DNA of 64,000 nt, from assembly GCA_951406725.2 (NCBI GenBank), contig OX597832.1, forward strand, positions 5,890,001 through 5,954,000. The letters run 5' to 3'. The position numbers and the translations under genes are program-made. Shown here one piece after another: positions 17,801-23,800 of the stretch (its first letter is position 1; each line of letters starts with the position of its first letter). Source of the stretch: Octopus vulgaris (lineage: Eukaryota). A model generated the notes under the pieces. It had not been told where the DNA came from and searched no databases. It was given only the letters and a program-made list of their open reading frames with translations.

Positions 17801-20800
17801 ACTTTTCAATGTTTTCTAGTTCTTTGTTATTTATGTGTGCATCTCCAGATATGGCAATATCTATATCCTTGGTTTCCTTTTTCGTTTTATCTACCACAAC
17901 AATATCTGGTCTCCGAGCATCGATTAAGAAGTCACATTCGAGTGTAAAATCCCACAGATTCTTATATTCCTTGTTCTCGGTGACTCCGTCTTGTTCATGT
18001 TCATACTTGACTACTTCTTCTTCTTCTTCTTCTTCTTGTTATTATTATTATTATTATTATTATTATTGATAGTGATGACGATGATGATGATGATGATGAT
18101 GATGATGATGATGATGTTACTGTTGTTATTGTTGATGGCGAGCTGGCGGAATCGTTAACACGCCGGGAAATATGCTTTGCGGTATTGCGTCCGACTTCAC
18201 GTTCTGAGTTCAAATTCTGCCGATGTCAACTTTGCCCTTCATCCTTGCGGCATCAATAAAATAAGTACCATCTGAGTATTGGGGTCAATGCGATCGACTT
18301 ACCCCTTCCCCAAAATTTCAGAGGAACGGATTAGTAGAAAAGATTTCAGAGGGAAGGATTAGTAGAAAGGATTTCAGGCTAAATGAGTAGTAAAAATTAT
18401 TATTATTATTATTATTATTACTGAGTGAAAGAGCAGTGCATGCCATCAAAGTGATAATGGGGTAAAATATACGAAACCCAGTTTACCCATCATGACTACT
18501 CGTCTAATAAGGGTACACCAGGCACATGCATCACAACCATATGTGCGCGACATGGTGATCTCATATCAAGATAAATAGCACATGACCTTGCAGGTGAGAC
18601 CAGAATTCACTTCTGGTCGAGTAGCCCATCTCGCTCAAAAGTTACCTGAATAAGGGGTGTTTAAGCATGTTGAACGAAACACCCATGTTTCCAGAGGTGA
18701 ATTATTCAAACCCCAAAAGAATTCCTCTCAATACGTGGCTATGATGTCCCCACCACTATTTCTGCTCGTGATAAGAAATGCACGTATCGTCAGCCACTAA
18801 GGGAATGCTCAACAAGCAAATCTGTGGTATCGAGCAGAATATTTTCTGTAACCCCTCTTTTATACCAAGACAAAACAATGTACATGATAACACTTCCAGT
18901 CAATTAAGATGAGAAGCCACGAAAGTTACTGCGAGGTACTGCATGAGGGCATTTATTATTATTATTATTATTATTATTATTATTATTATTATTATTATTA
19001 TTATTATTATTATTATTATTATTATTATCCAACATTTGGTAGTTTCAGGCAAATTTTTACAGTATCACCTGCTATATCTCCGTGTTGCTGGGGTGTGTGA
19101 AGCATTGCGATTTTTTGTGCGTGTGTGTGGCGGGGAGGGATGCAAACTCTTCCCGGTATTGTATTGCGTCAGTTTCTTTTGTTATGAGGTCTGGTGCAGT
19201 CTTTTGTTGTATTAGTGTTTGTATTGTGTGTTGTGTCTGTAATGCGTTGGGTAAATGGCCTGCTGGTGGTTGTTTATTTCATTGGATATTTGCTACATAG
19301 AGTGTGTCTTGTGTTTGTTGATTGTTTTGTCTAGGTTGTATTATTGAATTGGTAGTGTTTTACGTAGTACGTGGGTTGTTCTTAGCAGGATTACTTTTGA
19401 GATAGTGTGTACTTTTGAGATATTGCTTCTACGCTTTTTCATGTTTTTATTATCATGCCCAATGCTCAAATTATTACTGGTATTGTTTTCACGGACATGC
19501 CCTACATCTTAACTACTTGAATATCGAGGTGTTTGTACTTTGACAATTTCTCCACTTCTTTTGGGGTAATGTTTTTGTGAGAAGGGACTGTAATGTCTAT
19601 AAGTAAGCAGGTGTCTTTTTTCCCGAATCCTTGATTATTATGCCTGGGCGATTAGCTTTTATTTCTTTGTCAGTTTAAACAAGCATATCCTATATGATTG
19701 TGGCCTGGTCGTTGTGATGCACCTTATTTGACACATGTTTATATAATTTACTGTCAGTTTTTATGCTGTAGTTTTGGCATATTGTCCAGTGGACATAACT
19801 ACTTACTCGGTCATGTCTGTATATATATATTCAGATTTGGCAAAGAGTGGGCAGCTAGAGATGATGTACTCAACTGTCACATTGTGCTGGTTGTACATTC
19901 TGCATTTGGTGTTAGGGCCTATTTTCATTATTTTGTTTTTATAGTGGTTTGTAGTTAGGCATTAGTCTTGTGCAGCGAGAATCAGTCCTGCGTTTGCTTT
20001 TAGTCAAGAGCTTTTGAGCCCTTGTTGGTTTTCACTTAGGTTCACTTCTCTATAATAATAATAATAATAATAATAATAATAATAATAATAATAATAATAA
20101 TAATAGTTATTATTGTTGTTGTTGCTGCTGCTGCTGCTGCTGCTGCTGCTGCTGCTGCTGCTGCTGCTACTGTTCTTATAAGGTCACTTTTACTCTCAAG
20201 TGCCGTACAAAAATCCCCATTATTCCCTCCTCTTCCGCCTCCACCACCTTCTTTTTCTTATTTAGTTTCTGCAATGAGTAGTCCACAGCGTTAGAGACGG
20301 GCTCAAAAGTTAACAATAGCAAGGTCAACAGCTTCACCAAACAATATTGAATCTAGTTAGATCGTTATAAAACAAGATAGAAACTGAAAATGGTACTTAC
20401 AACCAAATAATTATGTAAGTAATTGAGGGAAGAGATACAGCCAACTCTAAGTACTCCCAGTCTCGGATCAGGTAGGCCAAACCAGCGAGAAGGACGAATC
20501 CAAAAGCAAAAAAGAACTCGAAAAGAATTCCAGTGATTTTCCGATATGTTGGACCGACTATTTCAATACCTAGAAACAAACAAAATTAACAACACAATTT
20601 CAGAATTTCATTAATTTCAAACAATAATTTGTCCTGCGCGGCAAATGCGAATTTCATTCATTAATATCTAATATGTTTTAAAAGAGGAAATGTATGTATA
20701 CATTATTTACAATTGACAGATATTTGTCCTCATCTTGTTTGTTGTTAACACAACGTTTCGGCTGATATACCCTCCAGCCTTCATCAGGTGTCTTGGGGAA

Positions 20801-23800
20801 ATTTCGAACCTGAGTTCTCATTCCTAAGGTATTTTTCGATGTTATTATTATTATTATTATTATTATTATTATTATTATTATTATTATTATTATTATTATT
20901 ATTATTATTATTATTCAGGTCACTGCTTGGAATCGAATTCGGAATCTTGGGGTTAGTATCCCGTGTTCTTAACCACTACGCCATATGCCCGTGGGCATAT
21001 GTATTCCCATGCATAGAGTTGCATGTCTAGACATGTTCATATATACTTAAATGATAAATTTCTGGAATGTTTTACATATTTTTACATTTCGAGTGATGGC
21101 TTGGATCTATAGTCTTCGAATTGGCTTTCGCCTTTCTGGTTTTGAGAAGCCTAATTTATCAAGATTGGTTCTTAGGCAGTGTGTTACATATCCCAGTTCC
21201 CCAATAATTACAGGTATAAACCTGAACATGGCGTAGTGGTTAAGAGCGCGGGATACTAACCCCAAGATTCCGAATTCGATTCCAAGCATTGGCCTGAATA
21301 ATAATAATAATGATACTACTACTACTACTACTACTACTACTACTACTACTACTACTACTACTACTACTACTACTACTACTACTACTAATAATAATAATAA
21401 TAATAATAATAATAATAATAATAATAATAACAACAACAACAACATCAACAGCAACAACAACAACATCGAAAAATACCTTAGGAATGTATGTATGTATGTA
21501 TGTATGTATGTGTGTGTGTGTGTGTGTGTGTGTGTGTGTGTGTGTGTGTGTGTGTGTGTTTATTAAGCAGTTACCCGCTCTCTACAACATACCGTTATCT
21601 TTCAGTTGATATGGATTATAGTATGATTATACTCATATTTAGTTTGTCCTTCTATGTTATGACTCTAAATTCCATCAAAGGAGGTTTTGCCCTTAATACA
21701 TCCGGAGCTGATAAAATAGACACCAAAGAAATACTGTTCTGTATTGCAAGCGTAATCCTTAAAGTATTCTTTTATTTTGATTATTATTTTGATCTGAAGA
21801 CATGCTTTTACAGAAAAAGAATATAAACAATACAGAGGGGATAACTTTCTAATTCCCCTGCAAAGACGTGACTAGAAGTTTTAAGATTCATCCATCTCCA
21901 TTGATTTCTCGCACTAAAACACACACACACACACACACACACACACACACACACACACACACACACACACACACATACACACACACATTCACATGCTGTT
22001 AAATCTTAGAATTTGATCACACAGCTAATGTACAATATGTTTCGATTGAGCTTAATATATGACTTATTCTATCGGTACCATCACTAAATACTAAATGCCA
22101 GGTGTGCTGCTGTTTTGAGTTATCAGGTGAAATAAATATCCGATTTCCTTTTTCCCACGCAGAAACTGCCGGAGACTCTTAGCTGTATTTCTAGCTCTTT
22201 TGAATCGATCGCAACGTCGGAAACTCTTTCGTGTCATCAGCAGGTATCTCACGGCCACAAATGTTTCGCTCCTTAGCCTGTACACTTCGCTTGAATGGAC
22301 TGAATTAGTCTTCGCTTCAGGAAGGGTTCCATACTTTGAGCAGCCATGCCTATCTCTTTGGTGGCTTGATTTAGTCTTTAGGATTATAATCCAATCGACC
22401 CAGTTGCCAGGATATAAACAACCAACCCAGCTGGAAAACCGCAACAGATGGATTTCATAGGCAATGAGGCGCGTGATTTTCCTTATAAGTATCCATTCTT
22501 CAGCTGGCACAAATCCTACTACGTTCAAAATTAAAAATCTTTCTTTTGAACCCCTCAACAATTAATAGAATAAGATGTTACAGTAAATTATTGATTGGTC
22601 GAATCCAGGGTACAATTTCAATTACATATGCATTGTAACTTAATTTTACTCATGTGATAATGCCCTTGAGAAGGCCATGGATAATATCCAGTGTAATCTC
22701 CATTCACTTAGATTATCTAAAGTAGCCAACATTTGCTACAATAACGAGGATTCTGAAGGACCGCACCACAGAAATTTACGGTGTACTCTGTACTACATGG
22801 GCAGGGAACCTGTTTTATTATCAAAATCGAATTTCCAGTTAACAAGAATTTATGCAGGGAGTAATTTTTTATTTTACAAATTAATTTAAATTACTATTTT
22901 GAGCAATTTTTACAAATTCTTAAGTTTGCAAATTGAATTACTGTTTTGATTATAATTTTTTTTTCATGTGAATCTTTGGAGACTTCGTCAGAAGACGGCT
23001 TCAGATGTCAAAATGGTGAAAATTCGCTCTTGGAAGATCCTATCACTTACTCTAGGACAATGTCCTAAACTTGAAAAATTGCTTTTTTATTATTTAGTTG
23101 AATTTGTTTTTCAAAACTTAAAATCCACAATGTCACAAGTTAAAGAGGTAGGTTATGGGCGATCCGAGTATACTACTACTACTACTACTACTATCACTAC
23201 TACTGCTGCTGCTGCTGCAACTACTACTACTACTACTACTACTACTACTACTACTACTACTACTACTACTACTACTACTACTACTACTACTACTACTACT
23301 ACTACTACTACTACTACTACTACTACTACTACTACTACTACTACTACTACTACTACTACTACTACTACTACTACTACTACTATGACTACTTTATCGATTT
23401 CAGAAGTCTGAAAGGTAAATTCGATCATAGTAATTTTACTATTGATACAGAATTGAAAAATGATAAGTACCTTAAAGCCTTTATTCCATAATAACAGCGT
23501 CTGTGACACTGTAAGCAATATGTGATTGTTCGACAAGTAAATTGCATGGCTTGGATGACCTTCCCTTCGATTGTTATAACTACAAGCAGACTTGTTTGCC
23601 AAGGCTTTAGCAGATGTCTACTGTTTCTGGCGACAACAACCTCTCACTCGTGAGAAGTTAATGAGCAAATATGGTTTTGATGGGGCTCTGGTCAATTTGG
23701 TCCTGTCGAAAGCTTTTGGCAGGGTCGGCTATGAAATATCTGGTTGTTAACTACAATGCAAACGGGTTCGGTCTCGATTTCAGAGAATAGCCTGCTTTAT

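Follow-up and report, generated by a model that had tools for sequence, protein, structure and literature searches.

A single retrotransposition of an element that is non-autonomous and about 300 bp long is, with a probability of roughly two in three, the origin of the insert at positions 20700–21482 of a 64-kb stretch of Octopus vulgaris DNA (contig OX597832.1, positions 5,890,001 to 5,954,000). This stretch at its full length is termed the window, all coordinates refer to it, and the insert is read on its minus strand. The element would consist of a tRNA-derived head with A- and B-boxes, an (AAT)n body, and a Penelope-type pseudo-long-terminal-repeat (pseudo-LTR) end with a minimal hammerhead ribozyme and a tail. 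Judged from its sequence, it is best read as a non-autonomous parasite of Penelope-like elements (PLEs) that resembles a short interspersed nuclear element (SINE). The fuller version of this reading, a true SINE with a Penelope pseudo-LTR as its 3' end that is transcribed by RNA polymerase III (Pol III), is copied by a PLE reverse transcriptase (RT) in trans, has kept its hammerhead and ranks among the most abundant octopus repeats, is given even odds.

From 5' to 3' on the minus strand, a (CA)n/(CATA)n microsatellite is followed by an inverted arm (21486–21228), a piece of a long interspersed nuclear element (LINE; 21227–20999), the tRNA-like head (20984–20915), (AAT)n, the hammerhead (20795–20747) and a tail that runs to about 20700. 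The individual features are listed below.

21483–21493, minus strand: upstream 11-bp direct repeat, a candidate target-site duplication, at the (CATA)n/(CA)n edge; the inverted arm shares its final bases with the last 4 nt of this repeat (microhomology).
21228–21486, plus strand: inverted arm, consisting of a tRNA-like head (21228–21297), an expanded trinucleotide microsatellite and the first 24 nt of the 3' part; it ends before the hammerhead.
20999–21227, minus strand: captured piece (229 bp) of a LINE with a restriction-like endonuclease (RLE), R4/Dong-like; last 59 codons at 21226–21050, stop codon at 21049–21047, about 48 nt of 3' untranslated region (UTR).
20982–21001, no strand: near-perfect palindrome of 20 nt (18 of 20 self-complementary) at the 5' end of the head; its overlap of a few bases with the LINE piece is microhomology at the join.
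20915–20984, minus strand: tRNA-like head, with the A-box at 20983–20973 and a B-box-like motif at 20938–20930, at tRNA spacing.
About 20843–20914, minus strand: (AAT)n body.
20796–20842, minus strand: spacer from the microsatellite to the hammerhead, part of the high-copy 3' end.
20747–20795, minus strand: type I minimal hammerhead with a 5-bp helix I, an unpaired A before helix II, a palindromic core junction and a GUU cut triplet; predicted cut after 20752.
20700–20746, minus strand: AC-rich tail; the family 3' end lies at about 20699–20702, and a 9-nt unit is repeated in some copies.
20689–20699, minus strand: downstream 11-bp direct repeat.

Copies elsewhere were assessed with contigs of four runs from three organisms, which were placed on the window sequence; runs with a share below 0.1 were left unused. 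The listings of the contig tables cover 15 of the 294 joints, 24 of the 1759 rows on loose ends, 40 of the 59 on variants, 32 of the 96,858 pieces and 12 of the 243 rows of table 5c, and all statements on listed contigs refer to these.

At least three organisms harbour the unit of about 300 bp as an independent family of very high abundance. Contig depth relative to the single-copy flank came to 1.4–1.7 x 10^5 for the hammerhead, 2.3–5.7 x 10^4 for the head and 0.3–1.2 x 10^4 for the LINE piece (contig depths were summed, so these values are not copy numbers). From hammerhead to head the depth drops by a factor of 2.7–6.1, as 5' truncation predicts. The 3' end of the family is fixed at 20699–20702 and followed by mixed flanks (agreement 0.46–0.52). 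Fourteen of the 15 listed joints, taken from all four runs, end in inverted orientation at 21228–21233, which is the start of the head; seven of them depart from differing points on the hammerhead side (20733–20812), and seven are head-to-head (20990–20998). In table 5c, 11 of the 12 listed rows end at 21228–21229, short fragments from immediately before the A-box frequently sit between the joined ends, and the inverted arms begin about 0–11 nt from the A-box. None of the 15 listed joints is of tandem type, and the locus itself carries a single hammerhead.

Truncated copies that join an inverted head at a fixed point amount to a Penelope-type signature; inverted 5'-truncated partners and a microsatellite bias typify PLEs (PMC8557442). 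Random nesting is insufficient, because it offers no explanation for the head-to-head class of joints. The head and the hammerhead end would belong to one family, as they are tied together across copies by the inverted joints. Two traits of PLE-mobilised elements are thus found in the unit, namely a minimal type I hammerhead near the 3' end and a recurrent inverted partner at the 5' end. A first-pass annotation of this DNA had recognised the same combination of a Penelope-type hammerhead with an inverted arm, and its suggestion of a short SINE- or retrozyme-like RNA that starts at the tRNA head describes the likely mobile unit. The coding part of an autonomous PLE (a PLE-type RT with GIY-YIG) was not found in the insert, the sole coding piece being derived from an RLE LINE.

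At the locus itself, the head of the inverted arm (arm: 21228–21486) is identical to the main head at 66 of 70 positions, and the two copies also agree in their B-box variant and in the 24 nt that follow the microsatellite, in agreement with the inverted tRNA-(AAT)n copy annotated previously. Both arms share the allele at 20959/21253, where about 95% of the other depth has another letter. One 11-bp direct repeat encloses the whole insert, with a 4-nt microhomology at the end of the arm, and the outer flanks are not LINE sequence. Because of the shared rare allele and the single enclosing repeat, the insert is taken as one insertion event with a captured LINE piece; as a target-site duplication the repeat is weakened by consisting mostly of microsatellite sequence. 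Contig-end distances give a weak hint that organism C (run X9) may share the insertion, in that its contig over the flank extends 30 nt into the tail.

The hammerhead core is complete, with CUGAUGA (20787–20781), one unpaired A, a 6-bp helix II, GAAA (20759–20756), a 5-bp helix I and no helix III loop, and has the minimal PLE architecture described in section 5 of PMC4209133. It is the sole match to the strict descriptor in the window (100 shuffles: mean 0.02, maximum 1), which bears out the earlier description of (AAT)n followed by an intact-core minimal hammerhead. The listed hammerhead variants (40 of 59) comprise CpG decay, a loop position and N7; the only non-CpG core change among them affects the tolerant N7 (20783, 50% in X9), and this pattern hints at a hammerhead under constraint. 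Since copies of the family keep about 52 nt beyond the predicted cut site, the hammerhead is not the maker of the inserted 3' end, and the earlier idea of a hammerhead-processed 3' end was dropped. The exact hammerhead pattern gave no match in viral and prokaryote collections.

Hammerhead-core-like motifs that fail the strict descriptor occur elsewhere in the window at 61950 (plus) and 2213 (minus). Two inverted arms of 167 bp (93%; 7938–8104 and 9125–9291), unrelated in sequence to the insert, each carry a hammerhead-like core (8090 minus and 9139 plus, respectively) and look like another PLE-type remnant.

The tRNA-like head has an exact A-box (20983–20973, minus), and 45 nt on from where this box begins lies the B-box-like motif. 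The perfect A-box and B-box-like motif of the first-pass annotation were thereby recovered at tRNA spacing. An A-box alone is not rare (4 in the window versus a mean of 1.64 in 100 shuffles). The A-to-B spacing equals that of an unrelated tRNA-headed SINE at 60136. The sense strand from 21227 to 20690 has no run of four T. The unit therefore shows what is expected of a tRNA-derived SINE, namely A- and B-boxes at tRNA spacing at its 5' end and no internal Pol III terminator, with a B-box that is non-canonical. A second family of tRNA-headed SINEs with the same A-to-B spacing is present on the plus strand at 60128–60300 and 31602–31900.

The LINE piece belongs to a family other than the tRNA-hammerhead unit. 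Its contigs diverge at 20998 into one common sequence distinct from the head (runs X2, X4 and X9: 129, 117 and 39 contigs, respectively) and continue past 21227 into the upstream open reading frame (ORF; 185, 179 and 76 contigs in the same order). No piece among the 32 listed crosses 20998 into the head. Three that reach 20998–21002 run on into unlike sequence, and the only one that spans 21227/21228 has 2 differences in 205 nt and so stems from the same locus or a twin. The related protein P0011 aligns to exactly 20998, after which its residues match the common continuation and then a TACA-type repeat read as protein; P0016, read residue by residue, ends in the same way. Because the contigs, P0011 and P0016 share this continuation, the native end of the LINE was placed about 30 nt past 20998. 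Neither an A-box nor a hammerhead was found downstream of the 12 closest LINE loci; among the 67 distant loci, only one is followed by a hammerhead on its own strand, at a distance of about 975 nt. The 3' part of the unit showed no similarity to the LINE piece or to 79 RLE loci.

These results do not support the central proposal of the first-pass annotation, an RLE family that carries a Pol III module and ends in a hammerhead: the LINE copies diverge at 20998 to another 3' end, and the modules are missing from all 12 close loci. The co-occurrence of ORF, tRNA module and hammerhead in other copies, on which that proposal hinged, fails for the LINE part. The LINE-head join is a local accident of little wider import; a small chimeric LINE-head subfamily may exist outside the listed rows. 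Minimal hammerheads that are not tied to the LINE 3' end were noted in 14 of the 67 distant loci (L019, L030–L033, L035, L036, L045, L053, L068–L070, L074, L077) and are probably independent PLE remnants.

By its protein relationships, the captured piece is the C-terminus of an RLE non-LTR retrotransposon. Its frame (21226–21050, minus) contains LGFSK and a single internal TAG at codon 40, and the final ~30 nt of the native LINE, together with its (ACAT)n tail, are missing from the piece. A profile of the 59-aa tail matched 230 proteins at E<=1e-3. The long matches carry RVT_1 and a weak zf-RVT; the longer relatives, with their cluster mates, have one ORF of about 1130–1160 aa with RT, a CCHC knuckle and RLE. 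All five PDB matches of relative P0159 are R2-type retrotransposon proteins, and P0060 from O. bimaculoides carries a PD..E..K region. The ORF end of RLE non-LTR type with one internal TAG, as first annotated, was confirmed by these relatives; the ending VKICKTF given for it was incorrect, as the translated frame has different last residues. No match was obtained with Pfam for the 59-aa tail, a word-index search with the P0002 tail gave no long relative, and no related loci were found in the viral and prokaryote collections.

A tree was calculated from 81 of 122 sequences and held no named clade references; 14 sequences were dropped (11 without a C-terminus, 2 near-duplicates and 1 over-long), the distant group was thinned to every second sequence, and the window's own tail was left out. 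The 54 nearer relatives form one clade with a support of 1.0. The window-tail profile scores 40–90 bits on the core group (P0184–P0203) and at most 16 on the distant group. An N-terminal C2H2/CCHC pattern is found in none of 10 full-length relatives. Among 79 metagenome loci, the 12 closest (L001–L012) end in (ACAT)n in three cases and in (ACTT)n in three (two near-identical), and six have no tail within the contig; 29 distant loci have tails of (TAA)n type (10), (GAT)n (7) or another kind (3), or no tail (9). The relatives of the LINE (L001–L012; P0184–P0243) combine a C-terminal signature of their own with 4-nt microsatellite tails. We infer the name R4/Dong-like for the captured piece, because the lack of an N-terminal zinc finger and the microsatellite tails fit the R4/Dong clade as described in PMC7998251 (no N-terminal zinc finger; microsatellite or ribosomal DNA target). 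The clade is possibly an R4/Dong subclade with a shifted target. Of the placement that the first-pass annotation had called for, the assignment to an RLE LINE and not to a PLE stands, and the R4/Dong name is attached to a fully supported clade of a tree without named references. A PLE with an RLE nuclease (Hydra clade) was considered and rejected, since Hydra has GIY-YIG and the RT of the relatives is of the R2/R4 type. On the minus strand at 19400–20060, a decayed end of an RLE LINE of canonical Dong-like type (CCHC, PD..D..K region, IPVII motif) lies between trinucleotide microsatellites.

The following mechanism is proposed for the insert. Transcription by Pol III would start at the head and read through the unit, which has no TTTT. 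The RT/endonuclease of an autonomous PLE would then prime at the tail of the uncleaved RNA; uncleaved RNA is assumed because some 52 nt beyond the cut site are retained in the copies and because the PLE RT PAc, in vitro, likewise takes RNA in uncleaved form as its template and begins synthesis in AC-rich sequence behind the hammerhead (PMC11167929). The other strand of the target, annealed by the 4-nt microhomology, could serve as second primer and would copy RNA from a point directly behind the microsatellite as far as the head's 5' terminus, giving the inverted arm. As the arm duplicates the head, a second or a dimeric RNA would be needed. The first complementary DNA would have run from the head into 229 nt of RNA of the R4/Dong-like LINE, either by a microhomology template jump or because a read-through transcript was copied from a source copy within the 3' UTR of such a LINE. 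The hammerhead would be inherited from the pseudo-LTR and could cleave only in dimeric form or when assisted by protein.

Several observations weigh against a tRNA-headed, PLE-mobilised unit. Its B-box departs from the canonical form, the cut triplet reads GUU, and neither a tRNA nor a hammerhead was recognised in the insert by Rfam. ARAGORN found no tRNA at the head, and single-strand folding z-scores were weak (-0.38 to -1.15) and not better than shuffles; it is thus the motifs, their spacing and the descriptor on which both RNA assignments, tRNA and hammerhead, are based. No autonomous PLE with the same 3' end was found in the window, where it was looked for. The contigs break at (AAT)n, so that the continuity of head and hammerhead elsewhere follows from the inverted joints instead of being read directly. 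Nested insertion could account for some of the joints; the loose ends of head-to-head type at 21001, perhaps partly palindrome artefacts, were not used as support. All copy evidence comes from run contigs and part-listed tables. Run X1 is an RNA run by guess only, and Pol III transcription is inferred. The copy also sits in (CATA)n, a repeat of the kind that the clade of the captured LINE has as tail or target, and this position fits mobilisation by that LINE equally well.

Mobilisation by the LINE was weighed as an alternative, in which the unit is a SINE moved by the (ACAT)n-tailed R4/Dong-like LINE, the captured piece reflects switching of the RT onto its own RNA, and the arm results from ordinary twin priming. 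The insertion within (CATA)n, the (ACAT)n ends of three of the 12 close LINE relatives, the origin of the captured RNA from that very LINE, and one listed joint with monomer twin-priming geometry (20812 to 21228) all agree with it. It was nevertheless judged unlikely: the unit's 3' part resembles neither the LINE piece nor the 79 loci, the flanks of the 3' ends are heterogeneous (agreement 0.46–0.52), head-to-head duplications cannot arise from twin priming on one monomer, and the hammerhead is of the minimal PLE type. A similarly low probability was assigned to the view that the unit is the pseudo-LTR of an autonomous PLE with a tRNA-derived promoter, its many copies being the 5'-truncated ends of that element. 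Most genomic minimal hammerheads have been read as truncated PLEs (PMC4209133), and a frame of 25 codons opens at an AUG inside the hammerhead core, which counts in favour because the PAc ORF likewise begins at its hammerhead (PMC11167929); 25 open codons could, however, be due to chance. Against this view, the listed loose ends show no consistent ORF-like continuation, neither ahead of the head nor beyond the tail, and the inverted arms start about 0–11 nt from the A-box, a distance to be expected of transcription by Pol III.

The reading of the first-pass annotation, recast as an RLE LINE family or sizeable subfamily with a tRNA module and hammerhead in its 3' UTR that integrates in a PLE-like manner, is quite improbable. 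Its modules are contiguous and co-oriented in the window, the LINE piece itself is high-copy, and a minor subfamily from one source locus may lie outside the listed joints and loose ends. Against this, three runs show the consistent non-tRNA continuation at 20998 in numbers comparable to those on the ORF side, P0011 and P0016 display the native LINE end, the close loci lack hammerhead and A-box (0 of 12) and the distant ones yield a single same-strand downstream hammerhead (1 of 67, about 975 nt away), and the only listed piece across 21227/21228 (2 differences in 205 nt) derives from the same locus or its twin. Chance nesting, in which two independent SINE insertions flank a LINE remnant, has been largely refuted and is very unlikely. 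The window is repeat-dense and contains the further RLE LINE remnant at about 19400–20060; yet the outer flanks are non-LINE, the arms share a rare allele, one 11-bp repeat encloses everything, and the arm is truncated at its 3' end with an intact 5' end at the junction. A PLE-mobilised, tRNA-headed unit is the preferred reading.

An exon of an SLC22-type organic cation transporter (20403–20570, minus; E 9e-10 to OCT3) lies about 130 bp downstream of the insert on the same strand, and further exons are possible near 22300–22800. The insert probably sits in an intron of an SLC22-type transporter gene. Other repeats in the window include a very frequent interspersed repeat of about 200 bp in both orientations, in some cases in tandem (16322–16541, 18134–18319, 26963–27620, 37668–37906, 44290–44452, 51374–51865, 53711–54250, 60494–60737 and others); an element of about 850 bp with inverted ends of about 180 bp (13538–14382), the interior of which resembles a decayed mariner-type transposase; and inverted arms of 134 bp (94%) around a 36-nt AT-rich centre inside (TA)n (32100–32403).

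SINEs are usually explained as parasites of LINEs with which they share the 3' end. If the preferred reading is true, PLEs would be a second class of SINE-mobilising partners, and elements of the SM-alpha type, animal retrozymes and PLE ends would form one series. A tRNA-headed element of very high copy number whose end and junctions are of Penelope type would demonstrate that PLE enzymes can drive amplification on the scale of SINEs. The unit would also offer a short natural template for studying recognition by the PLE RT and the role of the hammerhead, points left open in PMC11167929. No account of a PLE-driven tRNA SINE in octopus, of PLE-driven SINEs as such or of an RLE LINE with a 3' hammerhead was found in the literature searched, a coverage that excluded most subscription papers and repeat databases.

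Among known systems, the octopus tRNA-derived SINEs OK, OR1 and OR2 were reportedly described by Ohshima and Okada in 1994, one of them with a trinucleotide-repeat segment. By description only, they share with the unit the host group, a tRNA-derived head and a high copy number; the unit family may be one of these catalogued SINEs, in which case its hammerhead and PLE signature went unmentioned in the papers searched. Like R4/Dong elements (PMC7998251, PMC3774820), the relatives of the captured piece encode RT, a CCHC knuckle and RLE in one ORF, lack an N-terminal zinc finger and end in microsatellites; they differ in forming a distinct clade with 4-nt tails instead of (TAA)n, and only 229 bp are present at this locus. 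Dong and R4 use a 5' ribozyme resembling that of hepatitis delta virus, not a 3' hammerhead. The schistosome elements SM-alpha and Sj-alpha (PMC6765202), SINE-like and equipped with a Pol III-type promoter and a hammerhead, are like the unit short non-coding, non-autonomous retroposons in which the promoter precedes the hammerhead. They often occur in tandem, with copies cleaved from multimers, whereas the octopus unit has a minimal PLE-type hammerhead, an (AAT)n body, about 52 nt past the cut and inverted head junctions. Animal non-LTR retrozymes (PMC7229834, bioRxiv 10.64898/2026.07.22.740005), non-coding units of about 300 nt with a type I hammerhead that have been proposed as non-autonomous PLE derivatives, match the unit in size, lack of coding capacity and hammerhead type; they are defined by tandem repeats and circular RNAs, whereas the copy in octopus comprises a tRNA-headed monomer and an inverted arm. 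Because no tandem arrays were seen among the listed joints and the hammerhead is of the minimal PLE type, the unit was filed under neither SM-alpha nor the retrozymes; nor was it classed as an autonomous PLE or an RLE LINE. With the pseudo-LTR ends of endonuclease-positive PLEs (PMC4209133, PMC8557442, PMC11167929) it shares the short helix I, the unpaired base before helix II, the missing helix III loop, the tail after the hammerhead, the inverted 5'-truncated partner and the microsatellite site, and it differs from PLEs in that the place of the PLE ORF (RT and GIY-YIG) in the 5' part is taken by a tRNA-like head with A- and B-boxes.

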